DNA of 64,000 nt from Candidatus Kaiserbacteria bacterium (GTDB lineage: Bacteria; Patescibacteriota; Minisyncoccia; Phycocordibacterales; JABAAK01): assembly GCA_026713605.1 (NCBI GenBank), contig JAPOOC010000010.1, forward strand, positions 10,556 through 74,555, in the 5' to 3' direction. The translations under genes were made by a program, and so were the position numbers. The notes beneath the pieces were generated by a model that searched no databases, was not told the DNA's origin, and saw only the letters and a list, made by a program, of their open reading frames with translations. This document shows, piece by piece, positions 763 to 17,021 of this stretch (positions within the stretch are counted from its first letter, which is position 1; each line of letters starts with the position of its first letter).

Positions 763-780
763 AATGTTTGGTGAAACATT
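763..780. promoter_or_regulatory. palindromic GTGAAACA-type site upstream of rdgB
   Basis: AATGTTTggtgAAACATT inverted repeat containing GTGAAACA; the same half-site family occurs at 8.1-8.36 kb and 16.98-17.02 kb. Confidence 0.4.
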
Positions 781-810
781 GGTATACTTGAGGTATACGG
801 GTGGTCTTGT

Positions 811-1365
811 ATGTATCCCAACTTTTTTGCAACAGGTAATGAGGATAAGATTCGTGAGGTTCGCGCTATTCTTGGATATGCTGTGCAGCAGGTGTCTATT
901 GATCTTTTTGAGCCGCAAGGTATCAAGGTGGAAGAGGTCGTGCGCAAAAAAGCTGAGGACGCCTTTCAACAGATTGGCAAACCTGTGCTGGTTGAGGATA
1001 CTGGCTTGGAGTTTGCTGCGTGGAATGGGCTCCCCGGTGCGCTTATGAAGTGGTTTCTTGATACTGTTGGTAATGAGGGGATTCTTAAGATGCTATCTGG
1101 TGAGGCAGATCGCGTGGCAGTTGCTAAAACGGTGGTTGGATTTTTTGATGGCGATGCTGTTCATTTTTTTGTTGGAAAGGTTCATGGGACTATTTCAGAA
1201 ACAGTTCGAGGTGTCGGTGGCTTTGGTTGGGATCCCTTATTTGTTCCTGACGGTTATGATAAAAGTTTTGCCGAAATGACTCAATCTGAGAAGAACGCTG
1301 TTTCAATGCGCAGAATCGCGCTTGAGCAGATGAAGTCCTGTTTTTCTTGTGGTGGCAAGGATTAG
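811..1365 (+). CDS. rdgB: non-canonical purine NTP pyrophosphatase (RdgB/Ham1/ITPase family)
   Basis: 184 aa; N-terminal FATGNEDKIREV; GWDPLFVP and SFAEM..EKN..SMR motifs typical of the Ham1/RdgB family. Confidence 0.8.
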   Translation: MYPNFFATGNEDKIREVRAILGYAVQQVSIDLFEPQGIKVEEVVRKKAEDAFQQIGKPVLVEDTGLEFAAWNGLPGALMKWFLDTVGNEGILKMLSGEADRVAVAKTVVGFFDGDAVHFFVGKVHGTISETVRGVGGFGWDPLFVPDGYDKSFAEMTQSEKNAVSMRRIALEQMKSCFSCGGKD

Positions 1366-1382
1366 TGTGTCTGTCGGGAGGT

Positions 1383-1479
1383 GGTACACTTTCTTTATCT
1401 TGTATGATTACTCTTATATCCCGTGTGCAGAGGTGGTTGGATGGTATTACCATGTATCGTGTCGTGACGGGTGGACTTT
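1383..1479. repeat. 97-bp direct repeat, copy 1 (identical to 2035..2131)
   Basis: Base-for-base identical 97 nt (GGTACACTTTCTTTATCTTGTATGATTACTCTTATATCCCGTGTGCAGAGGTGGTTGGATGGTATTACCATGTATCGTGTCGTGACGGGTGGACTTT) to 2035..2131; it encodes the same peptide (TLSLSCMITLISRVQRWLDGITMYRVVTGGL) in both copies. Confidence 0.9.
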
Positions 1480-1480
1480 T

Positions 1481-1930
1481 TCACTCTTTTACGAGCCACA
1501 AAGTGGCTTGTGCAGTTGAGGAAAAAAGCATTGCTTTTGGTTCGTGTGGAGGGTATTTATTACGCTCATTGTATTTCTTTACCATTCCTGGCGATTCTAA
1601 AATGCTCCGCAATTGAGATTCTGGGTAACGAGACCCGAATTCGGTTAAAAATTGAGTGAGGGATTCGTGGTTGTTGCAGTCGTCCTCAATGCTAATAGCG
1701 GAAAGGTCATCGGCGTCATCTGGTTTGACTGGTCTTGCATTTTCATCGTTTTTTGTTATTACCAACTTTGAGTACCCCATTTCTTTAATTTCCGCAATCT
1801 TTTCTGAAAGATATCTCTTTTCTTTCTGAGATATCTCATTTATTTTTTCCTGTTTTTTTGGTGGTTTTTGCTCTTTGCTATTAAACTTTTCTGGCTTCAT
1901 GCTTGTATTATAACATCCTAATTTTGCCAC
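1481..1930 (-). CDS. hypothetical Lys/Glu-rich protein encoded on the insertion between the 97-bp repeats
   Basis: 149-aa ORF that exactly fills the 555-bp segment between the two repeat copies; charged, low-complexity N-terminus (KPEKFNSKEQKPPKKQEKINE); no recognisable domain. Confidence 0.4.
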   Translation of the reverse strand: MAKLGCYNTSMKPEKFNSKEQKPPKKQEKINEISQKEKRYLSEKIAEIKEMGYSKLVITKNDENARPVKPDDADDLSAISIEDDCNNHESLTQFLTEFGSRYPESQLRSILESPGMVKKYNERNKYPPHEPKAMLFSSTAQATLWLVKE

Positions 1931-3573
1931 ACTTCAATCGGTACTCCATGATATGTGTGGAAAACATGGAAAGATCAATGGACAAGCGGTATTTCTGTCT
2001 GTTGTGTGGCTGTTATTCTTTTCGGCTGTCAAATGGTACACTTTCTTTATCTTGTATGATTACTCTTATATCCCGTGTGCAGAGGTGGTTGGATGGTATT
2101 ACCATGTATCGTGTCGTGACGGGTGGACTTTGTTTTTTGGTGGTGGTGAGTTTTTTGTTGGGGTCTGTAGGATTGGTGTCGTACAGTTTTTCTGATCAGG
2201 TTACTTCGTTAGTTGTTGCGCTTGGTGTTGCTGTAGTGAGTAATGTGGTGTTTGCGCGACTGTTTCGGGTTTCTGCTCAGCATGAGTCGGCAGTTATTAC
2301 GGCGTTGATTATTTTCTTTCTTGTTATTCCCGCGACTTCGTTTTCCGGACAGTGGGTTGTTGCTGTCGTTGCTTTTGCTGCTGTCGCTTCAAAGTTCCTT
2401 TTTGTGTGGAGGCAGCAGCACATTGTTAATCCTGCTGCGTTTGGCGTGCTTGTACTCAGCGCACCCGGTTTGGTTGAAGCAGCGTGGTGGATTGGGAGCT
2501 TTTGGTTGTTTGTACCACTTGTTATCGTCGGATTTCTCGTTGTGATGAAAATACGGCGATGGCCACTTGTGTTGTGGTGCATCGGCACTGCGTTTATTGT
2601 GTATGTGTTTGAGGCGTGGCGACTCGATCTTTCTATCTCTTCTTCTGTACCCACCTTTTTCTTGTCGTGGCCTATATTGTTCCTTGCGTTTTTTATGCTC
2701 ACCGAACCGTTCACTACCCCACCAACAAAAAAAATGCAGATGTATTACGGCGCGCTGGTCGGCGGTCTTTCAAGTGCTGTTTTTTTCGCACCATATATTG
2801 CGATGTCTCCTGAACTTGCGCTGATCATTGGTAATCTTACCTTCTTCTCCTTTTCTTTGCGTAGAAAATTGCACCTCACTCTTATTAGAGCAAAGGAGGT
2901 TGCTAAAAATACCCGAGAGTTTGTTTTCACAAAACCGGAAGATGTGCGGTTTCGCGCTGGGCAGTATCTCGAATGGATGTTGCCGCACAGGAAGCCAGAC
3001 AACCGAGGGGTGCGACGATATTTTACTATTGCTTCCGCGCCGCACGAGGATGTGTTGCGGATTGCGGTTCGATTTTCTGAGGGTGGGAGCACCTATAAGC
3101 AGGCATTGCGGCAACTTGCACCTGGTGATTGTATTATTGCCAGTCAACGAGCTGGAGATTTTTTGCTACCGGATGACCCGACAAAAAAACTTGGATTTGT
3201 TGCCGGCGGGATTGGTGTTACCCCGTTCTTGAGTCACTTCGGAGACATCGCACGGCAGGGTGTGCCGCGGGATATTGCTCTGTTCTACTGTAATAACACA
3301 AGTGAGGAGATTGCGTATAGGGACATGCTTGATGCGCTTACTGATTCCGGTCAGTGTACTGTGGTGCATATCTTGGCGGAGGAGAAAGTGGTGGGGTGTG
3401 AGTATGGCTTGTTGACTGAAGATGGTATTAAAAAGTACACGCCTGATTATCAGGATCGGCTTTGGTATCTCTCTGGTCCTCCGGGGATGGTGTATGCCTA
3501 CACCACGCTATTGCAAGGCGTGGGTGTGCCAAACCGCAATATTGTTCGTGACTTCTTTCCCGGATTAGCGTGA
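1903..3573 (+). CDS. polytopic membrane protein fused to a C-terminal FNR-like FAD/NAD(P)H-binding oxidoreductase domain
   Basis: About 8 predicted TM helices in the first ~330 aa. C-terminal RRYFTIAS (RxYS FAD motif) and GGIGVTPF (GGxGxxP NAD(P) motif). The start is ambiguous (ATGs at 1903, 1966 and 2056); the 5' end is duplicated upstream at 1383. Confidence 0.7.
   Translation: MYYNILILPHFNRYSMICVENMERSMDKRYFCLLCGCYSFRLSNGTLSLSCMITLISRVQRWLDGITMYRVVTGGLCFLVVVSFLLGSVGLVSYSFSDQVTSLVVALGVAVVSNVVFARLFRVSAQHESAVITALIIFFLVIPATSFSGQWVVAVVAFAAVASKFLFVWRQQHIVNPAAFGVLVLSAPGLVEAAWWIGSFWLFVPLVIVGFLVVMKIRRWPLVLWCIGTAFIVYVFEAWRLDLSISSSVPTFFLSWPILFLAFFMLTEPFTTPPTKKMQMYYGALVGGLSSAVFFAPYIAMSPELALIIGNLTFFSFSLRRKLHLTLIRAKEVAKNTREFVFTKPEDVRFRAGQYLEWMLPHRKPDNRGVRRYFTIASAPHEDVLRIAVRFSEGGSTYKQALRQLAPGDCIIASQRAGDFLLPDDPTKKLGFVAGGIGVTPFLSHFGDIARQGVPRDIALFYCNNTSEEIAYRDMLDALTDSGQCTVVHILAEEKVVGCEYGLLTEDGIKKYTPDYQDRLWYLSGPPGMVYAYTTLLQGVGVPNRNIVRDFFPGLA
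2035..2131. repeat. 97-bp direct repeat, copy 2
   Basis: Identical to 1383..1479; it lies inside the 5' end of the membrane oxidoreductase gene. Confidence 0.9.
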
Positions 3574-3582
3574 GTTTTTACC

Positions 3583-4098
3583 TTGCTCTCGTGGTATAGT
3601 GATATTTATATGCCTCTCATTCCCATTGTTCTTATTATTGGTGTCGTTGTGATTGCGGGTTTTGTTTTTTTTATGCTCCCGAGCAGGCAGTCGCCGGAGC
3701 CACCAGCACCATCCGCGGCAACGACGGTTACTGATGTTGCTCTCCCCCTTACCCCATCATTGGAGCGTCGCATAGAGGATGTTGTGTTGTTGCAAACGAA
3801 CACCTATCGCAACGGCACTTATACCACTCATGCATCGTACTACACACCGAAGCGGCAAAAGCATGTTATTTCTGTTACCCTTTCGTTGCAGGACGATGTG
3901 ATTACTGCCGCTGATGTGCAGTATGACAGTGCTGCGGCAAAAACACCGAGCCACACACGGTTTGACGGTGCGTACGAGTCGCTCGTTCTTGGTGTGGAGA
4001 TGGATGACCTTGATCTTTCGCGGGTCGGCGGCGCATCTCTTACCACGACCGCCTTTAATGAAACACTGGCGGACATTGCCTCAGATGCATCTTTATAA
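3583..4098 (+). CDS. membrane-anchored protein with a putative FMN-binding (FMN_bind-like) domain; possible flavinylation substrate
   Basis: N-terminal TM helix, then a Pro/Ala-rich linker. C-terminal DLSRVGGASLTTT resembles the Dxx(S/T)GA(T/S) flavin-attachment motif of NqrC/RnfG-type FMN_bind domains. It sits between a flavoprotein gene and apbE. Confidence 0.45.
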   Translation: MLSWYSDIYMPLIPIVLIIGVVVIAGFVFFMLPSRQSPEPPAPSAATTVTDVALPLTPSLERRIEDVVLLQTNTYRNGTYTTHASYYTPKRQKHVISVTLSLQDDVITAADVQYDSAAAKTPSHTRFDGAYESLVLGVEMDDLDLSRVGGASLTTTAFNETLADIASDASL

Positions 4099-4985
4099 TG
4101 GTACAGATTAAGGAAATCCCCGCACTCGGTACCCACTGGTGGTTTGACTTGTTTGCCGTGCCAGCGTCACGAGAAAAAGAGATTGCTGATCGGCTTGTCA
4201 GTCGCCTCAACACCTTTGAGCAACAGTATTCGCGCTTTTTAGATACTTCTTGTGTGGGTGTGTTGAACAAAACTGGCATACTTAAAAACCCGTCTGATGA
4301 ATGCATCTCTCTGCTGCAGTTCGGGCAAAAACTGTACCGAGATACCGGCGGGATGTTTAACTTTCTCTCCGCTCATACGCAAGTTGCGCGTGGCTACGGC
4401 TCTCCTGATAGTGTGCGTGCTGGTGACAGTATGGCGCCCGCGAATCCCACACTTGATCTCGTTATTGATAAGCAGTGCGTTACGCTCCGTCGTGGTGCCG
4501 TTGACCTTGGTGGCTTTGGGAAGGGGTGGCTTATTGATGACTTGGCTGCTCTGTTGCGAACTTCTTTTGGCGTGCAGTATTTTCTTATAAACGGGGGTGG
4601 TGATATCTATGCGAGTACCCTCCCCGACAACTCGCCTGTTGTTATTTTTGTTGAGCATCCAACTGATCAAAAGCGTATTATCGCAAAAGTGCCGCTTGCC
4701 AATCAAGGGTTTGCTGGCTCTGGCACTTACAAGCGTCGGTGGCGACACGCTGATACAATGCACCACCACATCATAGCTGATCATACCGCTGCTATGACGG
4801 CTCACATCATCGCTGACACCGCGCTTACTGCTGATGTCTTCGCGACCCTCGCATGTGCGGTTGCTCCCGCAAGAGTGCCGAAGCTACTCTACGATAACAA
4901 TCTTGAACACCTCCTTATTCAGCGCGATCGTGTTATCTGTTCTGAATATTTTTCGCGGTTCCTCTTTTCATCAGTGGATAAATAA
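4098..4985 (+). CDS. apbE: FAD:protein FMN transferase (ApbE family)
   Basis: 295 aa; ApbE-like blocks DTGGMFN, VDLGGFGKGWLIDD and INGGGDIYA. Confidence 0.8.
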   Translation: MVQIKEIPALGTHWWFDLFAVPASREKEIADRLVSRLNTFEQQYSRFLDTSCVGVLNKTGILKNPSDECISLLQFGQKLYRDTGGMFNFLSAHTQVARGYGSPDSVRAGDSMAPANPTLDLVIDKQCVTLRRGAVDLGGFGKGWLIDDLAALLRTSFGVQYFLINGGGDIYASTLPDNSPVVIFVEHPTDQKRIIAKVPLANQGFAGSGTYKRRWRHADTMHHHIIADHTAAMTAHIIADTALTADVFATLACAVAPARVPKLLYDNNLEHLLIQRDRVICSEYFSRFLFSSVDK

Positions 4986-5048
4986 CGGCGAATCGGCTGT
5001 CGCGTATATGCGACAGCCGATTGTGTTGTGAGATGTCTGTTGGCAAAT

Positions 5049-5777
5049 TTACTGTGTGCTTTCAGTGTCGGATTCGGCTGTGTCGGTTTCTACCATATCC
5101 ATTTCAGTGGTTGTATCTGTTCGTGTCTTTTTGTCTGCACCCATTCTGTGGTTGCCCATGCGCTTGTAATCTTTACCCTGATGTCCCCCGCATGCACCGT
5201 GCCCGTGCCAATTAAAGCCACGGTCATCCGTTGAAGCAATTTTAGTGGCGCGTGTGTTGAACTCTTCTTGTGTCATGTCGTCGTAACGGCTCTTGTATTC
5301 GTCACCGAGCAGTGTTTTCAATTCCTGCACCTTTCCAGTGAATGCCGTAAAATCTTTATCCTCTGCCGCCTGTTTGATTGCCTGTTTGATGGCGATCATC
5401 TGCGCTTTCTTTGTGAAAGCACTTTCTGAGAGCTGGTGCATACTTCCTTCGGTCAGAGTTTTGTATGCCTCGTAATCGTTTGCGGAGAATGTGTCGCTGA
5501 TTTGTTTTTTCTTCGCAATTTTTTTCGCCTGTTCTGCAAATTCATCTTGTGTCAAAACAGTTTCCTCGTGTTTTTGATCCATCGCGGCAGTGTATGCATT
5601 GTAGTCCGCGCTTTCAAATGCTTTGTGTATCGCACTCTTGGTCTCTTCAGATACGCCACCGTGTCCGTGATGCCCTCTTTCAGCGAATACGCTTACTGCA
5701 TAGATGCTCACAAGCACTGCAATCAATAGGGCAGTTAGCATTACCATGCTTTTTGTGTTGTATATTTTTTTCATATC
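5049..5777 (-). CDS. secreted His-rich helical-repeat protein, hypothetical
   Basis: Signal peptide MKKIYNTKSMVMLTALLIAVLVSIYAVSVFA. His clusters ERGHHGHGG and NWHGHGACGGHQG. Repeated QEEF/QDEFAEQAKKIA helical segments. The start is moved from the track ORF (5885) to the signal-peptide Met. Confidence 0.5.
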   Translation of the reverse strand, partial: DMKKIYNTKSMVMLTALLIAVLVSIYAVSVFAERGHHGHGGVSEETKSAIHKAFESADYNAYTAAMDQKHEETVLTQDEFAEQAKKIAKKKQISDTFSANDYEAYKTLTEGSMHQLSESAFTKKAQMIAIKQAIKQAAEDKDFTAFTGKVQELKTLLGDEYKSRYDDMTQEEFNTRATKIASTDDRGFNWHGHGACGGHQGKDYKRMGNHRMGADKKTRTDTTTEMDMVETDTAESDTESTQ

Positions 5778-5878
5778 GGTTTTTTTATTTTTTAGCAATA
5801 CATACGATGTGTTTTCGTATGTATTTGTAGTGTAGCATGCGATATGTTTTCTTTGTTGCGTTTTAGGTAGGTATTCTT

Positions 5879-7801
5879 CTACCATTCAAATGCATTCTTT
5901 AGGTGATGGAGCATGCTTCGCGTGTCGGTGAATGCATCTTCTGATTTGAGTATGACGGTTATGATGTGCCCCTTTTGTGAAGGCGTTTTAGCGACGATGG
6001 TGAGATTGTTTTTTGCCCTCGGCGTTGTGCCGGTCTTGCCACCTAATACCTGTAACACGATTTCCTTGTCGGTGAGTAAATCGTTGGTTGTTGCTATCGG
6101 TATTGTTCGCTTCGTGGTTATTTCTGTTATGGTGTGATTGGTTTTTTGGAGGATGGCAAAAACATCTTTCTTGTTTTCAAAAATGTGTTTTAACAGTAGC
6201 GTGATGTCTGATGCGGTTGTGTAGTTTATGTTTTCACTTCCCTCTTTTGGATCAAGTCCGGTTGTGTTGAAGAAATGTGTGTTGAACATTTTTAATTGGT
6301 GGGCGCGGTCGTTCATTTTTTGTATGAATTTTTCTCTGCCGACTGTTTCTGCGATTGCAATTGCTATTTCGTTGTTTGATTCAATGAGGATTGCATGGAG
6401 TGCGTCATTGAGCAATATAGATTCTCCTGTGATAAACCTTCCTGACACACCCTTGCCGTTTAGTGCGCTTTGATTGATGCTAATACTCCTGTCCGACCGC
6501 AGTGTTTCAGACGCAACCAGTGCGGTCATCAATTTTGTTATACTTGCCATCGGTAGTTTTTTTTCTTTATTCTTTTGGAATAGCGTTTGATCTCCTCCGT
6601 TTGTGCTTGTGATTACTGCTACAGCACTGTTTGCAGATAGGATGGGTTCTTCACTACTAGTACTCTTCGGATTAGGATACCGTGTTGTTCTTTGTTGTGC
6701 CATTGGTGTTACTAGCTGCGCCTGCCAAACATCATTTCGCCAACGCCATTCAGCATCCATACCACCAAAAATCCACACCCTGTCTTTGAATACCGCTGAA
6801 AAGAAATCCTCCCTACCCTTCCACTGTGGATCAGTTACTGTTTTTTTCCACCTTATCCCATCTTCTGAATACCATACATTATTCGGTCCTTTGTTTTTTT
6901 TGTCGTTAAACCTTCCGATGAGCCACATCTTTCCTTTATACACCTCCATTGCGTGACCTTGTCGTTGCCCCCATGGCGGGCTGTTGGTTACTAGTCGCCA
7001 GTGCAATCCGTTTTCTGTTACCCACACATCGTTAAAAATCCCTCCGGTTAAATTCATACCGCCTGTCAGGTACATTTTTCCTTTGAATACTGCCGTTGCA
7101 TGATCCCACCGTGATTCCCATGGCATATTCTCTGCCTCCACCCAAGTTATCCCGTCTTCGGAATACCAAACATCGTTTTTTGTCTCTCGATTGTCATAAT
7201 TCACACCACCGATGAGCCAAATTTTATCTTGGAAAATTTCTACCATCTGCCCTTCCCGCGCAGGCCATTCTGCCTGTTTGGTTGCCTGTGTCCAGTGTAT
7301 CCCATCAGTGGATGACCAAATATCATTTGTGTAACCGGTCACCGGACTCCACCCTCCGAACATCCACAACTTGTCTTTGAAAAGTACCACCGACATAGAC
7401 CGTCTCGGTGGCCACTCTGCCGCTGCTACTGCCTGATGCCACCCCATACCATCTTCGGAATACCATATGTCGTTGAAGTGTGGTGCTTTCCAGTAGTCAA
7501 TGGTGTCGTCCCCTCTGATAGTGCTATTGCCGTTGATTCCACCCATCATCCAGAGTTTGTTTTGGAATAGAAATGCTTCACCAGAATCTCGCGTTTCCCA
7601 TGGCGCCGCTGCAGTCACCTCTGTCCAGCGCATGTCATGCCGTCTTACTATCGGTGTCTTTTTTGTGGTGTCGGTTGCTGCTGTATTTTTTTTCTCACCA
7701 TCTTTTTCGCCTACTCCCGCCAATGGGTCAAACATGGTATACATACCAAAAATAAAGAGGGCGAACATACTTGCGAGAATGACAAATTCTAACCACTTCA
7801 T
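5879..7801 (-). CDS. membrane-anchored Kelch-like beta-propeller fused to a D-alanyl-D-alanine carboxypeptidase (peptidase S11) domain
   Basis: N-terminal TM helix. About six repeats of W..(S/T)EDG..W....(L/I)W(M/L)(F/I)GG type. C-terminal SxxK (ASITK) and SNN (ESNNE) motifs of PBP5/DacA-type DD-carboxypeptidases. Confidence 0.7.
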   Translation of the reverse strand: MKWLEFVILASMFALFIFGMYTMFDPLAGVGEKDGEKKNTAATDTTKKTPIVRRHDMRWTEVTAAAPWETRDSGEAFLFQNKLWMMGGINGNSTIRGDDTIDYWKAPHFNDIWYSEDGMGWHQAVAAAEWPPRRSMSVVLFKDKLWMFGGWSPVTGYTNDIWSSTDGIHWTQATKQAEWPAREGQMVEIFQDKIWLIGGVNYDNRETKNDVWYSEDGITWVEAENMPWESRWDHATAVFKGKMYLTGGMNLTGGIFNDVWVTENGLHWRLVTNSPPWGQRQGHAMEVYKGKMWLIGRFNDKKNKGPNNVWYSEDGIRWKKTVTDPQWKGREDFFSAVFKDRVWIFGGMDAEWRWRNDVWQAQLVTPMAQQRTTRYPNPKSTSSEEPILSANSAVAVITSTNGGDQTLFQKNKEKKLPMASITKLMTALVASETLRSDRSISINQSALNGKGVSGRFITGESILLNDALHAILIESNNEIAIAIAETVGREKFIQKMNDRAHQLKMFNTHFFNTTGLDPKEGSENINYTTASDITLLLKHIFENKKDVFAILQKTNHTITEITTKRTIPIATTNDLLTDKEIVLQVLGGKTGTTPRAKNNLTIVAKTPSQKGHIITVILKSEDAFTDTRSMLHHLKNAFEW

Positions 7802-7826
7802 TTCTGTAGTGTAGCATTATATACTA

Positions 7827-8111
7827 ATGAGTGTGTTTAGAGAAAGTGTACTTACTGTTGTTTCTCGCATCCCAAAAGGGTCGGTCATGTCATACGGCGA
7901 GGTTGCAAGGCGGGCAGGGTCGCCAGGTGCCTCCCGGGCAGTTGGTCGCATCATGGCAAGCAATGTTGATCCGTTAATTCCTTGTCATAGGGTTGTCCGT
8001 TCTGATGGAGGTCTTGGGGGCTACAACCGAGGCGGCATTTCTCAAAAAAAGAAACTTTTACAGTCCGAAGGGGTTTTGATGCATGGTGGGCGTCTTGCTG
8101 TTTCTATGTGA
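7827..8111 (+). CDS. methylated-DNA-protein-cysteine methyltransferase family, DNA-binding domain (Ogt/MGMT C-terminal-like)
   Basis: 94 aa; IPCHRVVRSDGGLGGY matches the PCHRV active-site motif of MGMT. Confidence 0.7.
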   Translation: MSVFRESVLTVVSRIPKGSVMSYGEVARRAGSPGASRAVGRIMASNVDPLIPCHRVVRSDGGLGGYNRGGISQKKKLLQSEGVLMHGGRLAVSM

Positions 8112-8361
8112 AACACTTATGAAAACCCCTTTCCTTTTCCTTGTGTTTCTATGTGAAACATGTTTCACGTGAAACGATTTTTAGTTTTTTTGCCAGAATT
8201 GTTTCATGTGAAACACTTTTTTTGTAAAAGTTTATAAAAAACCCTTATTTTGTGTTGAGTGTTTCACACTGTAACATGTTTCACATGAAACTTTTTTGAT
8301 CTTTTTTCAGGATTGTTTCACGTGAAACACTTTTCCGTGAAACGCGTGAAACACTTTTTAT
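8101..8361. repeat. cluster of GTTTCA(C/T)GTGAAAC / GTGAAACATGTTTCAC palindromic repeats, each followed by a T-tract
   Basis: At least 8 copies of the GTGAAAC/GTTTCAC half-site form perfect 14-16 bp palindromes; several are followed by TTTTT (terminator-like); the cluster sits in the 300-bp intergenic region between the MGMT and yraN-like genes. Confidence 0.75.
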
Positions 8362-8374: not shown

Positions 8375-8428
8375 TTGACTTTTTGTCAAGTTATTTTATT
8401 ATTTAATCATTGTTTGACTTTTTGTCAA
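8375..8428. promoter_or_regulatory. two copies of the palindrome TTGACTTTTTGTCAA (8375..8389 and 8414..8428), putative promoter/operator of the yraN-like gene
   Basis: Exact 15-bp inverted repeat present twice, 39 bp apart, containing -35-like TTGACT/TTGACA hexamers on both strands. Confidence 0.45.
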
Positions 8429-8477: not shown

Positions 8478-8844
8478 TATGTCTACATTGAGTAAATTTT
8501 TTGGAAATATTGGGGAGAAGTATGCTGAAAAATATCTAACATCTCGTGGGTACTCCATTATAGCAACGCAATGCAACGCAAAATTTGTGGAGATTGATAT
8601 TCTAGCTCGGCAGGAGAAAACATTGTATTTGTTTGAGGTGAAAAGTGTTTCACATAGAAACATTGATTCTTCAGCATTTCACCCTGTGCATCGCGTCAAT
8701 CATCGTAAAATCAAAAAAATGGATGCCTTCGCCACCTTCTATTTGAATGATCACCCTGAATACACTGGTGCCGCAATGGGAATTATTACCGTTTCTCTTG
8801 CTGAGGAGTTGCAGTATCCAGATATTCAGATTGTTTGGATTTGA
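8478..8844 (+). CDS. YraN/UPF0102 family predicted endonuclease
   Basis: GEKYAEKYLTSRGYSIIATQCNAKFVEIDILARQEKTLYLFEVKS matches the UPF0102 pattern (GE..A..YL...G..I...N.R...GEIDLIA....LVFVEVK). The start is placed at MSTLSKFF rather than the track ORF start 8410. Confidence 0.6.
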
Positions 8845-9587: not shown

Positions 9588-9692
9588 CATCAGAAAATAT
9601 CTTGCGGTATGCTCCTTTGCTTGTGCAGACCTCTTTGTCTGCAACGCGATTTATCATGTACCCCTCCCTTGACTGTGTGGGTTTGAGGCACT

Positions 9693-11144
9693 TTGAAACT
9701 TTTGTTGACAGTGGCGGTGTTTGGCGGGTATACTGGCACATACATGCGTGTGGTTACAAAACAATTACAACCAGAAAGTCCAGAAGTGATTGTCTATTCG
9801 TTTCATGAGAACAATTTTTTGAGTGGATTGAAGATGCTTAATGCGTCCCTGGCAGTAGTCGCAGAGCGGAAAGGGCTGCAGGGAGAGGTCGGTGATGTTG
9901 TTATCGGCATGAATTCTGATAATGTTTATATCTATTGTGTTGTTGCTGGCTCTGGTGGCGCGAAAACAAGGAGTGCTGGTGGCTCTTGCGCTGCGTGGGC
10001 AATGGAGGAGCGGATAAAAACAGTGGAAATGGTGGAAGGAGTGCCTGAGGATTTTGTGGAAGGATTTATGTTGCGTAACTATGTGTTTTCTGAGTATAAA
10101 ACAGTCGCTAAGACAAAGAAGGTGCCGGTGCGAGTGGTTTTGACAGCGCAGTCGTTTCCACAGGGGCGGGTATATGGCGTGCAAGCTAATCACATCGCAC
10201 GCGACCTCATGAATGAACCACCTAATACTCTACATCCCCCTCGGTACGCCGAAAGAATACAGACACTTTTTGCTGATACAGCGGTTTCTGTTGAGGTGCT
10301 CGGAGAAGAAACCTTGAGGCAGATTGGCATGTGTGCACTACTTGCGGTTGGGCAAGGGTCATCGCAAGAGAGTAAGGTTGTCATTATGCGCTGGAACGGT
10401 GGGCAGGACACTCGTACTGTTGATCTCGCGCTCGTTGGGAAGGGGATTACCTTTGATACGGGGGGCATATCTCTCAAGCCGAGTGATAGGATGGATGAGA
10501 TGCGGTGGGATATGGGTGGATCGGCGGCGGTTGTCAGTGCCTTGCATGCTGCGGCGAAGAGTGGGATGCAGCAAAACATTGTTGGGGTGGTTGGCTTGGT
10601 TGAGAACATGCCGGATGGAAACTCCTATAGGCCTGGGGATATTGTTACCAGTATGTCAGGGAAAACAATAGAAATTATTAATACGGATGCTGAGGGACGG
10701 ATGGTGCTTGCTGATGCGCTTTGGTATGTGCAGGAACAATTCTCACCTCGTGAAATTATTGATTTTGCCACGCTCACCGGTGCGGTCGTTGTTGCACTTG
10801 GTACCGAGTATGGTGGGCTTTTTTCAAACAATTCTGCGTTTGCGGAGCGATTGGTGCGTGCTGGTGAAAAATCTGGTGAGTTGGTGTGGCAGATGCCGAT
10901 TCACGACAATTATCTGGAGCGCATGCAATCACGCACTGCTGATTTGCGTAATACGAGCATCTTGCGAGGTGACTCGGGTGCCGGGACTGCGGCGGCGTTT
11001 CTCCGTGCATTTGTGAAAAAGGAATCTGTATGGGCGCACATTGATATTGCTGGCTGTGCACTTCCTTCTAAGCATAACAAGCTCGCAGGAGGAGATCCGA
11101 GTGGTTTTGGCGCTCGTTTTGTTCACGCCTACCTCACTGGGTAG
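9693..11144 (+). CDS. pepA: leucyl aminopeptidase (peptidase M17)
   Basis: NTDAEGRMVLADAL M17 signature; the track ORF starts at 9693, but an internal Met at 9744 is an alternative start. Confidence 0.85.
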   Translation: MKLLLTVAVFGGYTGTYMRVVTKQLQPESPEVIVYSFHENNFLSGLKMLNASLAVVAERKGLQGEVGDVVIGMNSDNVYIYCVVAGSGGAKTRSAGGSCAAWAMEERIKTVEMVEGVPEDFVEGFMLRNYVFSEYKTVAKTKKVPVRVVLTAQSFPQGRVYGVQANHIARDLMNEPPNTLHPPRYAERIQTLFADTAVSVEVLGEETLRQIGMCALLAVGQGSSQESKVVIMRWNGGQDTRTVDLALVGKGITFDTGGISLKPSDRMDEMRWDMGGSAAVVSALHAAAKSGMQQNIVGVVGLVENMPDGNSYRPGDIVTSMSGKTIEIINTDAEGRMVLADALWYVQEQFSPREIIDFATLTGAVVVALGTEYGGLFSNNSAFAERLVRAGEKSGELVWQMPIHDNYLERMQSRTADLRNTSILRGDSGAGTAAAFLRAFVKKESVWAHIDIAGCALPSKHNKLAGGDPSGFGARFVHAYLTG

Positions 11145-11165
11145 TGGTGTGCTGCCGCGCTTCTG

Positions 11166-12839
11166 CTACTTCGGCTCAATGAGAAGGTGTAGTGTTGTTT
11201 CTTTTGGGAGTGCCCAGAGGAAAGTGCTGAGGCGAGGACCGCTGTTTTGGGTAATGAGGAGTTGGTAGAGGTGTTTAAAAAAGGATCGTTGCGCTTTTTT
11301 GAGTTCCTTTTCGTCGGTGTGTTCTTTTTTTGGTAGGGAATAGAGGTGTTCTTCCAGATTGTGTACTGTTGCCTTTGGATTTTCTTGTAGGTAGGTATAG
11401 AGGTTTTTTATGTGCCCCCTGTTTTCGTTATCCACTGCTTTCCAATGCGTGGTGTTTGGTTCTTTGCGGACGGTGATAACTGCCTCTCTGTTGTATTCGG
11501 TCAACCACGCCCTTGCTTTTGGAAGGCGGGACTGTATTGATTGCGTATCAAAAAAGAGCTGTGATGCTTTGAGTATCATCTGCAGCTTACTCTTGTCCCA
11601 CTGCGCTATCTGCGCCAGTCCAGTAAGGTTGCGAAAGGATATAGGGTTTTTGTAGGCGCTGCGTGCGCATATGTCTTTGACCGCCTTGACAATTTGTTCT
11701 TCTGTGTTATTTTCTTTTGTGTTTCTCTGAAATAATTTTATAAAGAAGTTTTTTTGCTGCTTTGTAAACACGCTGTCCATCTCGTCATACTGGCGGTATA
11801 CCTCGGTGTCAAAGGCGAGTGAGAAGGTTTGAGAGGGAAGTCGGCGAAGATACATCCAGAGGAGCAGTGCTGGCTCGTAGATAGCAAGAAGAGTGTTGGG
11901 GGTAATTGCTACACCCTTTGAGCCGGACATTTTGGTTGAGCCGCCTTGTATGCCGACAAAGCCGTATTCGGTAAATACCGGCGGCTCAATATTAAATATC
12001 TTCTTTGCGATTGTTGCGGACACATCGTAGCTGCCGCCTGGTGCTGCGTGGTCGCTACCACCTGGCTCAAAACAGACCTCTTCATATTTCCAGCGCATTG
12101 CCCAATCTACCTTCCAGTTGAGCTTTGCGATTCGTGTTTCTGCAAGATTTACTGCCTCCTCTTTTTTGGTTATTTTGCAGCGGTAACGAACTGTTTGTTT
12201 GCCATCGTAACTGAGTATCTCAGTTGCGTCTTTGCTGGTGAAGCGGGAATAGAGTGAGATAGGGAAGTACGATTCTCGGTACTCGCTATCCACAATACCC
12301 TTGTTCTTCTTTCCCTTTTCGGTCATAAAAGAAAGTAGTATATCAGCTATCTCTTTTCTTTTGCGGAGTGCATCAAAGAGGTGTTCGTCGTAAGTTCCTT
12401 CCTGATACAACTTTGTTTGATATTTATAGATTGGTTTGATGTTGAATGCCTCTAACCCTTTTTCAAACTCCTGCTGATAATATTCGGCGTATGATTTATT
12501 TTTTTCGTGTGGTGAGGGTATGTTTGAAAGTGCTTTGCCGATGTGTTCTTCGTATACAGGATCAATGTCTGCCGGCACCTTTCTGAAACGATCAAAGTCA
12601 TCCCACGAATAGATGAATTCCGCCCGCTTTCCCTTGTTTTGCAGTGCTTTTACTACTGCAAAGGTGGTAATAACCTCACGAAAGTTGCCGAAGTGAATTG
12701 GTCCGGATGGACTGATACCAGAGGCGCAGACGAATTTCTTCCTGTTTGGGTATTTTTTTATTAGATAGTCAGCAATACCGTCTGCCCAATACGCTGCTTT
12801 TCCGTATTCTTCTCCACTTATTCTGGTGCCATGCTTCAT
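11166..12839 (-). CDS. lysK: lysine--tRNA ligase, class I (archaeal-type LysRS)
   Basis: 557 aa; SPSGPIHFGNFRE (HxGN HIGH-type motif of class I LysRS) and STKMSGSKG (KMSKS-like). Confidence 0.7.
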   Translation of the reverse strand: MKHGTRISGEEYGKAAYWADGIADYLIKKYPNRKKFVCASGISPSGPIHFGNFREVITTFAVVKALQNKGKRAEFIYSWDDFDRFRKVPADIDPVYEEHIGKALSNIPSPHEKNKSYAEYYQQEFEKGLEAFNIKPIYKYQTKLYQEGTYDEHLFDALRKRKEIADILLSFMTEKGKKNKGIVDSEYRESYFPISLYSRFTSKDATEILSYDGKQTVRYRCKITKKEEAVNLAETRIAKLNWKVDWAMRWKYEEVCFEPGGSDHAAPGGSYDVSATIAKKIFNIEPPVFTEYGFVGIQGGSTKMSGSKGVAITPNTLLAIYEPALLLWMYLRRLPSQTFSLAFDTEVYRQYDEMDSVFTKQQKNFFIKLFQRNTKENNTEEQIVKAVKDICARSAYKNPISFRNLTGLAQIAQWDKSKLQMILKASQLFFDTQSIQSRLPKARAWLTEYNREAVITVRKEPNTTHWKAVDNENRGHIKNLYTYLQENPKATVHNLEEHLYSLPKKEHTDEKELKKAQRSFFKHLYQLLITQNSGPRLSTFLWALPKETTLHLLIEPK

Positions 12840-12916
12840 ATAGGTAGTGTATCACGGTGGATTTGTTTGTGCATACAAAAAGATTGCCCCGAGCAGATGC
12901 TCGGGGCGTAGTTAGG

Positions 12917-13321
12917 TTAGCGACGGCGCTTGGTCCGTCGCGTTGTCCGCTCCTCCACCCGTTCGGTGGCGGTGGAGCGGGAGCGGACAGTGCGACGATC
13001 TGGGGCTTGCCGCACCGTTCGGCTCACCCGCTTCCGGCGGGTGATTTCGGACGACCAACCATTGGTCGTCTGCACCCGCCGCGGGGCGGCGGGTGCATAT
13101 TGGGTGTGGTGGTGGTTGGAGGAATAATTCCTCTCCACCACCACTGTCCGATAGTACGAACGATGGTGGTGGTAACCACAGCCGTAGCTGTGGCAGTGGC
13201 CACACCACACCTCGGCGGTGTGGTGATGACGGTACGGGCTCTCCCGTATTACCACCGTACATCCCGATAGTAGCGGCAGCATAACTACCGCCACTGCGGT
13301 TAGGAAAAATCTTACTTTCAT
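12917..13321 (-). CDS. His-rich lipoprotein, hypothetical (possible metal-binding)
   Basis: AGGAGG SD then MKVRFFLTAVAVVMLPLLSGC lipobox. Mature region is His/Tyr/Cys-rich (HHHTAEVWCGHCHSYGCGYHHHRSYY...SSNHHHT). The start is moved from the track ORF (13363) to the lipoprotein-signal Met. Confidence 0.5.
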   Translation of the reverse strand: MKVRFFLTAVAVVMLPLLSGCTVVIRESPYRHHHTAEVWCGHCHSYGCGYHHHRSYYRTVVVERNYSSNHHHTQYAPAAPRRVQTTNGWSSEITRRKRVSRTVRQAPDRRTVRSRSTATERVEERTTRRTKRRR

Positions 13322-13402
13322 GATTTTTCCTCCTTTTTTTTTTAGATTTTGGTGCAAGAGCACCTATTCTAAATTATACAATATAACTATAATTTTGTCA
13401 AT

Positions 13403-13477
13403 GCACGCCCGGTAGGACTTGAACCCACAACCTCCCGGTCCGAAGCCGGACGCTCTATCCAATTGAGCTACGGGCGC
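13403..13477 (-). tRNA. tRNA-Arg (anticodon TCG), no encoded CCA
   Basis: Minus-strand cloverleaf: acceptor GCGCCCG (G1-U72 wobble), anticodon stem TCCGG/CCGGG, loop CTTCGGA, T-arm GTGGGTTCAAGTCCTAC. Confidence 0.65.
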
Positions 13478-13529
13478 TTGGTAGAATTGTAGCACGGAGA
13501 TAGGTTGCTACTGACTACTGATCGTTTCA

Positions 13530-13612
13530 GTGGCGGAATTGGCTGTGCCCAGAAGAGGGCTTGAACCTCCACGAGATTGCTCTCATACGCTCCTGAAGCG
13601 TACGCGTCTACC
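13530..13612 (-). pseudogene. partial tandem duplicate of the tRNA-Leu 3' two-thirds (from the D-loop GGTAGACGCG to the 3' end, plus ~17 nt downstream)
   Basis: 83-bp unit 97% identical to 13656..13738. It lacks the 5' acceptor/D-stem half, so it cannot fold into a complete tRNA. Confidence 0.6.
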
Positions 13613-13671
13613 CGTGCCGGCAATCTCTGATTGACGCTGACTATCAGACGCCACGGTGGCGGAATTGGCTG

Positions 13672-13755
13672 TGCCCAGAAGAGGACTTGAACCTCCACGA
13701 GATTACTCTCATACGCTCCTGAAGCGTACGCGTCTACCAATTCCGCCACCTGGGC
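13672..13755 (-). tRNA. tRNA-Leu (anticodon CAG), long variable arm, no encoded CCA
   Basis: Minus strand GCCCAGGTGGCGGAATTGGTAGACGCG...TTCAGGA...GGTTCAAGTCCTCTTCTGGGCA; strong similarity to canonical bacterial tRNA-Leu. Confidence 0.8.
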
Positions 13756-13829
13756 TACACAGGAAGTATACCGTATTGGCACTTTTGCCTTATCTTTTGA
13801 CGACAGCGGGGTATATACTGTTGGTAAGT

Positions 13830-15320
13830 ATGGCTGAAAAAAATACGCTTTCTTTGTCGGTGCCCGAATTCGCTGTGGAAGTTGCACAAACTCTGCACAG
13901 TGCCGGGTTTGAAGTGTACCTTGTTGGTGGCTGTGTTCGCGGGTTGATTATGGGGCGAGAAGTTGCTGATTGGGATTTTACGACGAATGCCACACCGGGG
14001 CAGATACAAGGTCTTTTTGAACACACCGTATATGAAAACGATTTTGGTACGGTTGGGGTTGTATTGGATGGTGTGCCTGATGGCGACAGCGAGCATACAG
14101 TCGTTGAGGTTACTCCGTATCGCAAGGAAAAAGGGTATAGCGATAATCGGCGTCCGGATGCAGTGGTATTTTGTGACTCTCTTGATGAGGATCTGTCACG
14201 ACGAGATTTCACCATTAATGCGCTGGCGTACAATCCGGTAACAGAGGAGTTGGTTGACCGGTACGGTGGCATTGCTGATCTCCACCTCGGTGTCATACGG
14301 ACTGTCGGTGATCCCGCAGAGCGGTTTGAGGAGGATGCGTTGCGACTGATGCGCGCAGTGCGAATTGCTACACAGCTGCATGGCAGTGTTGAGGAGAGAA
14401 CCCTACAGGTTATACAGGAGAAATCTGACGCCCTTACCTCTGTCGCACCTGAACGAATACGGGATGAGTTTCTGAAGCTTATTATGGCTGATGTGCCTGA
14501 TACTGGTATACGATTGCTCCTACAGACCGGACTGTTGACACATATCATTCCTGAACTTCTACAAGGGGATGGCGTCGAGCAAAGCCAGGCGCACCGGTAT
14601 GATGTGTTAGAGCACAACATTCGGACACTTGCGCACAGTGGAGTGAAGCAATTTCGTCTTGAGGTTCGACTTGCTGCACTGCTGCATGACATCGGCAAGC
14701 CAAAGACCCGGGAATGGCATGAAGAACGAGGGGATTGGTCATTTCATGCGCACGAGGTCGTTGGCGCACGGATGGTGAAGAAGATATTGCAGCGACTGAA
14801 ATTCTCAAAAGAAGTTGTTGACACCGTTACACTGTTTGTCCGGTGGCACATGTTTTTCTCTGACCCTGACAAGGTTTCCCTCTCTGGAGTGCGGCGGATG
14901 GTTGCGCGAGTTGGCGAGCAGCATATTTGGGATTTGATTGATTTGCGGATGTGTGACCGTATTGGTACTGGCAGGCCAAAGGAGCAACCATATCGTTTGC
15001 GAAAGTATGTTTCGTTGGTGGAGGAAGTGTTGCGGGAGCCCGTTACCCCCGGCACACTTGTTATAAATGGTACGATGTTGATGCAAGGGATTGGTCTGAA
15101 ACCCGGACCAAAGATTGGGCATGTTCTCCACATCCTGCTTGCAGAAGTGCTGGATGACCCTGAGAAAAATGTTGTGGATATATTGCTTGCGCGTGCAAAA
15201 GAGTTGTTGCAACTGTCTGAAAAAGATCTCGCCATACTTGGCAAGAAGGGGAAGGTGCGTCGGTTTGAGGAGGAGGAAGGGCAGGTGGCAGAGATACGAA
15301 GGAAATATAGAGTTGACTGA
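13830..15320 (+). CDS. cca: CCA-adding tRNA nucleotidyltransferase with HD domain
   Basis: GGCVRG...DWDFTT pol-beta NT motif, the following RRDFTINA block and HDIGK HD motif; an N-terminal start at MAEKNT fits the downstream tRNA; all tRNAs in the window lack an encoded CCA. Confidence 0.8.
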   Translation: MAEKNTLSLSVPEFAVEVAQTLHSAGFEVYLVGGCVRGLIMGREVADWDFTTNATPGQIQGLFEHTVYENDFGTVGVVLDGVPDGDSEHTVVEVTPYRKEKGYSDNRRPDAVVFCDSLDEDLSRRDFTINALAYNPVTEELVDRYGGIADLHLGVIRTVGDPAERFEEDALRLMRAVRIATQLHGSVEERTLQVIQEKSDALTSVAPERIRDEFLKLIMADVPDTGIRLLLQTGLLTHIIPELLQGDGVEQSQAHRYDVLEHNIRTLAHSGVKQFRLEVRLAALLHDIGKPKTREWHEERGDWSFHAHEVVGARMVKKILQRLKFSKEVVDTVTLFVRWHMFFSDPDKVSLSGVRRMVARVGEQHIWDLIDLRMCDRIGTGRPKEQPYRLRKYVSLVEEVLREPVTPGTLVINGTMLMQGIGLKPGPKIGHVLHILLAEVLDDPEKNVVDILLARAKELLQLSEKDLAILGKKGKVRRFEEEEGQVAEIRRKYRVD

Positions 15321-15367
15321 CTTTTGTTTTATGTGGGGTGGTGCGGGTGTGTTGTATACTGCCCTTG

Positions 15368-15778
15368 ATGGAGGAAACTATTTTTCAGAAAATTATTTCA
15401 GGAGAAGTGCCAGCTGATACGGTGTATGAGACGGATCGGGTGTTGGCGTTTTTGGATATTAAGCCGGTGCACAAAGGCCACACTTTGGTGATACCGAAAA
15501 CGGCGGTGCAGGATATTTTTACACTCGGTGATGAAGATGCGGGTTACCTTATGCGGGCAATTGTGGTGGTAGCGAATGCGGTCAAGCAGGTGACTGCTGC
15601 GCAAGGAATAAATGTTATTGCCAACAATGGTTCAGCGGCGGGGCAAGAGGGCTTTCATTTGCATTTTCATATCATTCCACGCTTTGCAAGAGGGGAGTTT
15701 CACCCATTACCACACACGGCGTATGCAAGTGACGACGAGCGAGTTGAGTTTGCACAAAAAATTGCATCGGTGATGTAG
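15368..15778 (+). CDS. HIT family (histidine triad) nucleotide hydrolase
   Basis: GFHLHFHIIPR HxHxHxx motif. The start is moved from the track ORF (15338) to the internal MEETIF Met. Confidence 0.75.
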   Translation: MEETIFQKIISGEVPADTVYETDRVLAFLDIKPVHKGHTLVIPKTAVQDIFTLGDEDAGYLMRAIVVVANAVKQVTAAQGINVIANNGSAAGQEGFHLHFHIIPRFARGEFHPLPHTAYASDDERVEFAQKIASVM

Positions 15779-15784
15779 TAACCC

Positions 15785-16351
15785 TCATATCGTTACTGCG
15801 CCTTGTCGCAGTATTTTTATCGTATCCCCGCGAGCATCAACCACCGTGCTTGCCGGTCCGTGTAACACCCCACCATCAATCGCCAGTGCGATACCGTTCG
15901 ATAGTTGTTGCAGGATGTCACTGATTGTGTTCGGATCTTTTTCTCCACTGATGTTTGCGCTTGTTGCGGTGATTGGTCCGTATGTGGTGGCTAGTGTTCG
16001 GCAAAACTCGTTGTCCGGTATGCGTACGCCAATTGTTTCTCCTGTGTTTTTTTTGCTTTCCAAAATAATAGTGAGTTTACCCGGTAGATATTTCACTAAT
16101 GATTTGGCAACATCTGTTATCTTGGCATGGTGGCTCACTTGCTCAAGGTCGGAAAAAATATATGCTATCTTTTTTTCTTGTGACCGCTGCTTCAATGTGA
16201 ATAATTTTTCTATCGCTTTCGACTGCTGTGGATCAGCGCCGAGTGCGTAGAGGGTGTCAGTTGGGTATACGATTACCTTACCCGCAGCAAGTGTTTCGCA
16301 TATTTCCTCAATTGGTGCCTCTTGCTCAGTATAGATAATTGGTTCGCTCAT
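15785..16351 (-). CDS. tsaC: L-threonylcarbamoyladenylate synthase (YrdC/TsaC family)
   Basis: VIVYPTDTLYALGADP YrdC signature; 188 aa. Confidence 0.75.
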   Translation of the reverse strand: MSEPIIYTEQEAPIEEICETLAAGKVIVYPTDTLYALGADPQQSKAIEKLFTLKQRSQEKKIAYIFSDLEQVSHHAKITDVAKSLVKYLPGKLTIILESKKNTGETIGVRIPDNEFCRTLATTYGPITATSANISGEKDPNTISDILQQLSNGIALAIDGGVLHGPASTVVDARGDTIKILRQGAVTI

Positions 16352-16359
16352 ACTTTGTG

Positions 16360-16905
16360 CTATGCGTTGCTGTCGGCAATTCCTGCGATTGGCTTCCGTG
16401 GTGTTCGCTCTTCTGTTTTACCCGCCTCTTGTGTTGGCTTGCCAACAGCTATGGCAGCAAAAATCTCATACTCCTTTCTATCTATACTCAACTCATCGTA
16501 TGCGCGCCCTTCATCAAAGCCACCCATCGCATGTGCGCTGAGTCCAACGAGGTGTGCTTGTAGAGCGAGTGCCATCCACGCCGCACCTGTGTCAAATGCA
16601 TAGTGTCGGTTTTGTTCTCCTGTTTCACTGAGTGTTCGTTTTGCCGCTATAAAAAACAGTGTCCCGGTGTTTTTTGCCCATTCTTGGTTGCCATCAAAAA
16701 GTAGGTTAAGAAATTTCTTTCGCTGATTGTCGGTTTTCGGGTAGAAAAACTTCCACGGCTGCTCGTTATAGCTGGACGGTGTCCAGCGGGCTGCCTCAAG
16801 GAGGATGTTTATTTGCTCCTGCGTGAGGAGGGTGCCGTCGTACTCTCGACTGCTCCACCTGTCAACGAACTGTGGTGCAACCCCTTCTGTTTCAGTTTTT
16901 CTCAT
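16360..16905 (-). CDS. nitroreductase family protein
   Basis: FVDRWSSREY (RxSxRxF-like) and SSYNEQPWKFFY nitroreductase hallmark; the start is moved to MRKTETEG so that the palindromic operator-like site falls upstream. Confidence 0.7.
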   Translation of the reverse strand: MRKTETEGVAPQFVDRWSSREYDGTLLTQEQINILLEAARWTPSSYNEQPWKFFYPKTDNQRKKFLNLLFDGNQEWAKNTGTLFFIAAKRTLSETGEQNRHYAFDTGAAWMALALQAHLVGLSAHAMGGFDEGRAYDELSIDRKEYEIFAAIAVGKPTQEAGKTEERTPRKPIAGIADSNA

Positions 16906-16982
16906 TGCTTGTAGTATAGCAATGGTATTTGTTTCTGTGAAACAGGTGCATTGAAAACCTTGAAAGATGGCGTGGACTACCT

Positions 16983-17021
16983 CCGTGAAACGCGTGAAAC
17001 AGTGTTTCACGCGTTTCACGG
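16983..17021. promoter_or_regulatory. 39-bp near-perfect palindrome CCGTGAAACGCGTGAAACAgTGTTTCACGCGTTTCACGG in the divergent promoter region
   Basis: 19-bp arms are exact reverse complements. The arm CCGTGAAACGCGTGAAACA is identical to 8335..8353. It lies upstream of the nitroreductase gene. Confidence 0.7.

Follow-up and report, generated by a model that had tools for sequence, protein, structure and literature searches.

A probable chromosomal parS array beside yraN, and a conserved element of parS half-sites at a nitroreductase promoter, in a Candidatus Paceibacterota genome

Introduction

The chromosomal ParB site parS (TGTTNCACGTGAAACA) is a strongly conserved palindrome found in the great majority of bacterial chromosomes, and a 2020 review lists it in identical form for Bacillus, Corynebacterium, Mycobacterium, Caulobacter and Hyphomonas (PMC7022226). 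Several ParB proteins also bind a single heptamer, GTTTCAC or GTTCCAC, known as the half-parS (PMC7022226, PMC5961200, PMC10419367), and Pseudomonas aeruginosa ParB represses the promoters adjoining parS3 and parS4 (PMC5521831). Here we analyse a 64-kb stretch of contig JAPOOC010000010.1 (hereafter the window), in which the heptamer GTGAAAC/GTTTCAC gathers at two loci: an array of 16-bp palindromes in the spacer between an MGMT-like gene and yraN, and a four-half-site palindrome upstream of a nitroreductase-family gene. We put the probability at roughly 85% that this heptamer family is parS, with the array serving as a centromere, the composite at the nitroreductase promoter most likely operator-like or architectural, and a further heptamer-bearing hairpin upstream of rdgB probably unrelated.

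Plasmids provide two further points of reference: the sopC centromere of F repeats a 43-bp unit, which contains a 16-bp inverted repeat, 12 times in tandem, and KorB of plasmid RK2 is a ParB that acts as a local transcriptional repressor. Against this background the array belongs to a familiar type of element, parS, but is unusually arranged, denser than in model chromosomes and more like plasmid centromeres. It shares with the chromosomal parS of B. subtilis, Caulobacter, Mycobacterium and Hyphomonas (consensus tGTTNCACGTGAAACa) the identical 16-bp palindrome with the same variable outer and central positions, and, as in those species, several copies lie near dnaA and are conserved across related genomes. 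It differs in that the copies are 37-97 bp apart in a single spacer, whereas those of the model species are spread over tens of kb (PMC7022226, Table 1), and in that their number is polymorphic within the species; the host, moreover, belongs to an unstudied lineage of the Candidate Phyla Radiation (CPR).

Results

The array site at 8314-8329 is letter for letter the published chromosomal parS (TGTTTCACGTGAAACA / TGTTNCACGTGAAACA), and the literature that uses exact TGTTTCACGTGAAACA concerns, among the matches listed, ParB-parS, chromosome origins or chromosome organisation. Compared with the consensus, the window holds one perfect site, two with one mismatch and one with two mismatches. Across 42 parS sites from seven species, positions 3-7 and 10-14 are invariant; only positions 1-2, 8-9 and 15-16 change, in agreement with the known consensus. 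In sequence, position and conservation the array matches chromosomal parS. Its parts and its two neighbours are as follows.

8099..8353, no strand: parS array with four full or near-full parS sites and five extra half-sites, in the spacer between the MGMT-like gene and yraN
8314..8329, no strand: perfect parS TGTTTCACGTGAAACA, equal to the literature consensus
8161..8176, no strand: parS with one mismatch, TGTTTCACGTGAAACG; an abutting half-site at 8153-8159 makes it a > < > triple
8200..8215, no strand: parS with one central mismatch, TGTTTCATGTGAAACA
8277..8292, no strand: parS with two mismatches, TGTTTCACATGAAACT
8337..8352, plus strand: direct half-sites GTGAAAC-GC-GTGAAAC at the yraN-proximal edge of the array, equal to one arm of the palindrome at 16983-17021
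8108..8114, plus strand: isolated half-site in GTTTCTATGTGAAACA, overlapping the TGA stop codon of the MGMT-like gene
8261..8267, minus strand: isolated half-site GTTTCAC
7827..8111, plus strand: stand-alone MGMT C-terminal-domain gene (94 aa, PCHR motif intact), left neighbour of the array
8479..8844, plus strand: yraN (UPF0102), conserved right neighbour of the array, followed by tRNA genes

To set a chance baseline we used dinucleotide-preserving shuffles of the 64-kb window (n=100). The window has 33 copies of GTGAAAC/GTTTCAC; the shuffles have 11.2 +/- 2.9, and none of them (0/100) reached 33. Eleven copies fall within 8108-8352 and five within 16937-17019, leaving 17 outside both clusters against 11 expected window-wide. 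Four matches to the head-to-head 16-mer TGTTTCACGTGAAACA at up to three mismatches, all within 8161-8329, compare with 0.63 expected, and ten matches to the looser GTTTC-N0-8-GAAAC with 0.5 expected. The tail-to-tail form taken alone is not significant (three matches against 0.62; 1/100 shuffles reached three). Elsewhere in the window, and in about 20 kb of contigs that flank it in the same organism, there was no further parS with up to three mismatches; in a control set of unrelated metagenome contigs, 602 kb in all, sites with up to two mismatches were present on just two contigs.

These counts bear on an earlier note on this DNA, in which the heptamers had been read as one family spread over three loci. 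Every string that it quoted occurs where it was placed, and the identity it reported between 8335..8353 and an arm of the nitroreductase palindrome is confirmed by a 19-mer, CCGTGAAACGCGTGAAACA, common to 8335-8353 and 16983-17001; the palindrome, which it gave as 39 bp, is 43 bp long (16981-17023). The array and the nitroreductase palindrome, two of the three loci, lie far above chance. The rdgB copy drops out of the family: the 8-bp-stem hairpin at 763-782 (CAATGTTT-GGTG-AAACATTG; -7.7 kcal/mol, z = -3.1), 4 nt upstream of a TATACT hexamer before rdgB, is a different hairpin that contains a single heptamer, within the background of 17, and nothing similar lies upstream of the rdgB orthologue in the related contig L016. 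We therefore rejected it as a member, and the site is probably unrelated to the heptamer family. The enrichment in intergenic DNA that the note had asked about applies to the two clusters; the 17 remaining copies are mostly in coding regions, near chance level.

The same heptamer, GTTTCAC, is the half-parS of P. aeruginosa, where binding needs no spreading and gives narrow chromatin immunoprecipitation (ChIP) peaks (PMC5961200, PMC10419367, PMC7022226). Hundreds of single heptamers are scattered over the P. aeruginosa genome, mostly in genes, whereas no such scatter is seen in the window, where isolated heptamers are near chance. Here the conserved heptamers are instead grouped: four make up an ordered composite at one promoter, and others are oriented half-sites within the array.

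The array varies between strains. In contigs of this species assembled from other metagenomes two alleles occur, with four or seven sites, that differ by a 182-183-bp tandem duplication, and the corresponding spacers of 368 and 550 bp coexist in public samples (L002 1069-1619). Several short-read assemblies of the species end inside the array (contig ends L004-L006 and L008-L010); the array thus accounts for the breaks in short-read assemblies at this spot.

Between the array and yraN lie two copies of a different palindrome, TTGAC-N5-GTCAA (8375-8389 and 8413-8427), which share bases with promoter-like hexamers (TTGACT, 16 nt, TATTAT); L017 and L118 have one similar copy each. These may be a separate operator of the promoter for yraN and the tRNA genes.

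Arrays recur at the same place in relatives whose lysyl-tRNA synthetase (LysRS) or nitroreductase is 74-79% identical. The spacer between the MGMT-like gene and yraN contains eight parS sites in L016 (seven of them perfect), seven in L017, seven in L118 (six perfect) and six in L119, in each case built of tandem units of about 137-175 bp, and the MGMT-like left neighbour is also seen in L118, L119 and L124. The last of these, a Kaiserbacteria contig, has four degenerate parS sites beside its MGMT-like gene. In L018, compared for its parS sites only, at least six perfect copies lie where the fetched sequence ends. The DNA between the sites diverges from species to species and the 16-mers stay constant. 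Details of layout are shared as well: the > < > triple is found in L016, L017 and L118, the yraN-proximal edge element in L016 (14345/14354), and the extra half-sites of the arrays are nearly all in the GTGAAAC orientation. In L118 (19021-20050) the MGMT-like gene has been cut to 57 aa and is flanked by an insertion-sequence transposase (DDE_Tnp_1), yet the parS array is intact, which argues that the array is independent of that gene.

In the window, L016, L017, L118 and L119, read on the strand that runs from the MGMT-like gene to yraN, the 10 nt downstream of each parS are 63% T against 26% upstream; no such T-tracts were found in the arrays of L018 and L124. DNA bending, insulation of transcription or strand bias could produce this pattern of tracts and half-site orientation. 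An AAAACC(C/T)TT(G)ATTTT-like motif also occurs once per repeat unit across species.

The closest genomes in a search with the class I lysyl-tRNA synthetase are complete Candidatus Paceibacterota chromosomes of 662, 697 and 725 kb, and on this sequence evidence the host is a CPR bacterium of the Candidatus Paceibacterota. The window includes dnaA and dnaN.

56439..59149, plus strand: dnaA-dnaN, with dnaA at 56439-57803, dnaN at 58040-59149 and canonical DnaA boxes

There is a perfect DnaA box at 56370, and DnaA-box-like 9-mers lie in the AT-rich spacer between dnaA and dnaN (57806-58039). The array is 48 kb from dnaA-dnaN; since the chromosomes of relatives measure 0.65-1.1 Mb, it lies about 4-7% of a chromosome from dnaA, and dnaA and its boxes suggest that it is origin-proximal.

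The second cluster sits upstream of the nitroreductase-family gene, 7-9 kb from the array in five species.

16981..17023, no strand: 43-bp palindrome of four half-sites, GTGAAAC-N2-GTGAAAC-N3-GTTTCAC-N2-GTTTCAC
16930..16944, no strand: degenerate parS, 1 bp short, TGTTTCACAGAAACA as read on the minus strand, overlapping the nitroreductase -35 hexamer
16913..16941, minus strand: sigma-70-like nitroreductase promoter (TTCACA, 17 nt, TG-n-TATACT; 10/12 matches), with the ATG at 16905
16360..16905, minus strand: nitroreductase-family gene, 181 aa, with the half-site element upstream
17140..17496, plus strand: small open reading frame (ORF), 118 aa, without a Pfam match, divergent from the nitroreductase gene

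The half-sites of the palindrome are spaced at 9/10/9 bp, and the element lies about 37 bp upstream of the nitroreductase -35 and 77 bp upstream of the ATG; in the window the TTCACA of the degenerate parS is itself the promoter -35. Eight species with nitroreductases 68-100% identical carry GTGAAAC-N2-GTGAAAC-N(3, 4 or 14)-GTTTCAC-N2-GTTTCAC upstream of the gene. All heptamer positions (28/28) are identical in the eight, and variation is found in the flanks, the N2 spacers (GC/GC, GC/AT, AC/AC, CC/GG, CT/AC) and the centre (3, 4 or 14 nt). In 8/8 species the core promoter region also contains a degenerate parS, downstream of the composite and before the ATG: TGTTTCACAGAAACA in the window, and GGTTTCACGGGAAACA, GTTTCGGTGAAACA or GTTTCTTGTGAAACA elsewhere. 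Only two direct heptamers remain in a 56%-identical species, and two species at 57-59% identity have no heptamers upstream of the gene. The exact four-half-site pattern had no match in JGI metagenome contigs (0) or in IMG/VR (0). Used as bait in metagenome contigs, the nitroreductase retrieved only homologues of up to 51% identity, none with the element, and these contigs became the 602-kb negative control.

The element goes with the nitroreductase gene rather than with its other neighbour, pgk. Between the element and pgk there is an opposite-strand small ORF in the window, L016 and L121; in the five other species (L017, L118, L119, L120 and L125) this ORF is absent and the element comes directly after pgk, and it stays with the nitroreductase gene in both arrangements. 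Considered as a hairpin, 14 of its 20 pairs never vary and the spacer pairs are unpaired in 3/8 species; the symmetry-preserving changes are one double change, CC/GG in L125, and a C-G to T-A switch in the outer flank. Its predicted stability as DNA ranges among species from -25.6 to -11.6 kcal/mol. From these patterns we predict that the heptamers at the nitroreductase promoter serve sequence-specific recognition by a protein, a hairpin role being itself possible, and the element is probably a ParB-type operator.

Discussion

If established ParB biology carries over to this lineage, ParB dimers would recognise the 16-bp palindromes, close on them as clamps dependent on cytidine triphosphate (CTP), and slide onto the flanking DNA. 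On the array they would build a partition or SMC-loading complex near the origin, to be acted on by ParA and/or SMC. With four to eight sites in tandem 137-182-bp units, many loading sites would be packed into a few hundred bp, which would raise the loading rate. The number of array units changes by unequal recombination, as seen in the 4-site and 7-site alleles.

Several observations weigh against parS as the identity of the family or sit awkwardly with it. Three of the four parS sites in the window deviate from the consensus. On the plus strand both the GC skew (G>C) and the AT skew (T>A) keep their sign across dnaA-dnaN, and throughout the window skew sign tracks gene orientation; because the sign is the same on both sides of dnaA the origin is not placeable by skew, and it is dnaA and the DnaA boxes alone that mark the array as origin-proximal. 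The T-rich tract downstream of each parS has no explanation if the sites are parS. The > > < < composite is no known ParB loading site, and the CC/GG change in L125 and the outer C-G to T-A change would also fit a maintained hairpin. Finally, neither parB nor parA was found in the window or 10 kb to either side (about 84 kb, about 12% of a genome of about 0.7 Mb), nor within +/-10 kb of 11 related loci (about 3% of each relative), and there is no parAB operon within 10 kb of the array or in the 48 kb between it and dnaA. For this search we used Pfam on some 60 window ORFs (unknowns at E <= 1), the Pfam tables of fetched contigs, and tblastn of Spo0J and Soj against 1.24 Mb of loci; the Spo0J query was recognised by Pfam as ParB_N + HTH_ParB + ParB_C. 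We nevertheless infer from the sequence that a ParB exists in this genome, because the unchanged 16-mer is kept in multiple copies across species.

The earlier note had read the pattern as consistent with operators of one dimeric transcription factor governing a repair and detoxification regulon, and we considered a dedicated non-ParB factor with a small regulon made up of the MGMT-like gene, yraN, the nitroreductase gene and rdgB. The spacers in which the sites occur do contain promoters, the nitroreductase site, which eight species share, overlaps the -35, and direct repeats with a 9-bp period are a non-canonical arrangement for ParB. The full site, however, is identical to the pan-bacterial parS, six to eight copies in tandem units are not operator-like, and no regulator gene is adjacent at any of 12 loci, the candidate helix-turn-helix regulator that the note asked for being absent next to the sites in the window by Pfam annotation of the ORFs. 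Among the promoter sites, conservation is limited to that of the nitroreductase gene and does not extend to rdgB, the other heptamers stay at background level and are mostly in genes, and in L118 the array persists although its MGMT-like gene has been broken by a transposase. What survives is the notion that these are predicted recognition sites of one dimeric helix-turn-helix protein; the word they spell is that of parS, a dedicated regulon is quite unlikely, and operators for MGMT or YraN are not borne out by an array of parS kept at the same place in related genomes. The operator proposed at the nitroreductase promoter fares better, since the element is conserved in eight species with a degenerate copy on the -35 and so looks operator-like, from which regulation would be predicted. 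A different account of that element makes the 43-bp palindrome a nucleic-acid hairpin with no protein site: a stem-loop in RNA, serving to terminate or stabilise the transcript of pgk, or else a cruciform in DNA. Its predicted stability is very high (-36 kcal/mol as RNA, z = -9.8; -25.6 kcal/mol as DNA), its position directly after pgk in five relatives and an A4T6 tail in L017 would suit a terminator, 89% of cells are paired, and the L125 double change and outer-flank switch preserve pairing. Yet the 14 heptamer stem pairs are invariant in eight species although compensatory change would be free, while the N2 spacers that do vary are unpaired in three of the eight. Stability falls to between -11.6 and -14.5 kcal/mol in four relatives, the loop in L120 grows to 14 nt, the U-tract is absent in the window and L016, and in the window, L016 and L121 the element is cut off from pgk by the opposite-strand ORF and remains with the nitroreductase gene. 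We regard a purely structural role as improbable, though it deserves some weight.

The array, too, might be explained by transcription, as intrinsic terminators or as tiny units of promoter, hairpin and T-tract that insulate the MGMT-like gene from yraN and the tRNA genes. The T-rich plus-strand tract after each parS would fit such units, as would extended -10-like motifs (TGTATAAT) before some sites in L017 and L118. But hairpins formed by single sites have little stability (-4.6 to -4.9 kcal/mol, z about -1), a scan for terminators gave no hit in the array, T-tracts are missing from the arrays of L018 and L124, the whole strand is T-rich in this genome, and no Rfam family matches (at E <= 1, the region 1-20 kb gave only tRNAs and sub-threshold noise); we consider this explanation very unlikely. 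Least credible of all is a small dispersed hairpin repeat of the repetitive extragenic palindrome (REP) or miniature inverted-repeat transposable element (MITE) kind, also raised in the earlier note, or a set of iterons or DnaA boxes of a replication origin. Palindromic, intergenic, repeated sites whose tandem copy number differs between strains could suggest either, but only two loci occur in about 84 kb, both of them syntenic across species, and the units diverge between the sites so that only the 16-mers and heptamers are conserved. DnaA boxes and origin iterons were rejected as well: canonical TTATCCACA boxes are found at dnaA and in the dnaA-dnaN spacer and none in the array.

With parS thus the preferred identity of the array, its architecture can be compared with that of mobile elements. 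Like plasmid arrays of the sopC type, it consists of tandem direct repeats with ParB-type inverted repeats; unlike plasmid and phage arrays, it is chromosomal, positionally conserved and set beside housekeeping genes, with longer and more heterogeneous units. Plasmid arrays of the sopC type adjoin their parAB operon; here no parAB was found within 10 kb. Dense arrays are not unique to it, because chromosomal-type arrays are also present on 106 IMG/VR contigs (L126-L231), which have at least two perfect chromosomal-type parS sites 20-50 bp apart and reach eight sites in 38-bp tandem units (e.g. L211 6137-6460). In the fetched stretches of these contigs tblastn detected a Spo0J-like ORF on 1/106, and the ORFs of L211 had no Pfam match; phages or phage-plasmids may borrow the ParB of their host. 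We rejected the idea that the viral arrays are misbinned CPR fragments, as no window protein has a homologue on those contigs.

How the nitroreductase element would work is a weaker part of the parS interpretation. ParB, or a paralogue of the same specificity, might bind the > > < < composite and the promoter site without clamp loading, and might then repress or tune the nitroreductase promoter or bridge to the array 7-9 kb away. There is a parallel in ParB as a local repressor at P. aeruginosa parS3 and parS4 (PMC5521831), since here too a parS-like site overlaps the core promoter of a neighbour. Here, however, that site is degenerate and 1 bp short, a four-half-site composite lies upstream of it, and any regulation would be predicted from sequence; we found no described counterpart of the composite. 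Because the orientation of its half-sites does not suit the closing of a clamp, ParB would stay on the composite and not spread from it. A bolder extension, which we offer only tentatively, is that the Paceibacteria ParB, or a paralogue reading the same heptamer, doubles as a transcription factor, and that the composite ties the nitroreductase gene to ParB occupancy and so to the state of segregation or of the cell cycle. The same speculative reading would make the non-spreading composite a binding mode distinct both from canonical parS and from the scattered half-parS of Pseudomonas. In a more radical version, likewise tentative, the reduced genomes would lack ParB, another protein having taken over parS.

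Chromosome segregation in the CPR appears uncharted, and in the literature searched we found no relevant paper linking ParB or parS to CPR, Patescibacteria or Parcubacteria. If the array is a centromere, the result would locate that of a Paceibacterota chromosome, and the array could then also serve as a marker of the origin-proximal domain in metagenome-assembled genomes of the CPR, and the four-half-site element at the nitroreductase promoter would be a testable case of ParB as a gene regulator in an unculturable lineage. The pan-bacterial parS word itself has been kept unchanged in these genomes of 0.65-1.1 Mb.

Other features of the window

A low-GC island at 21176-30500 (GC 0.36-0.39 against 0.45-0.50) has a reversed AT skew and lies beside a tRNA-Ile gene with the rare anticodon TAT. 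Its genes encode an N6/N4 DNA methylase with a MerR-type helix-turn-helix (23848-25779), an NYN-domain protein (25781-26869) and a ResIII/SNF2 helicase (26881-29112), and it looks like an acquired restriction or defence island. Further along are a transfer-messenger RNA (tmRNA) gene (38355-38744) with a long tag, ANKNKFARAFTEFINSSAPAFA, a gene for a TrwB/TraG-like ATPase (46132-48807), one for a 1023-aa protein without a Pfam match (49344-52415), and comEC (53139-54617). A long-tag tmRNA together with a TrwB/TraG-like ATPase, the 1023-aa protein and comEC is a set typical of CPR genomes.

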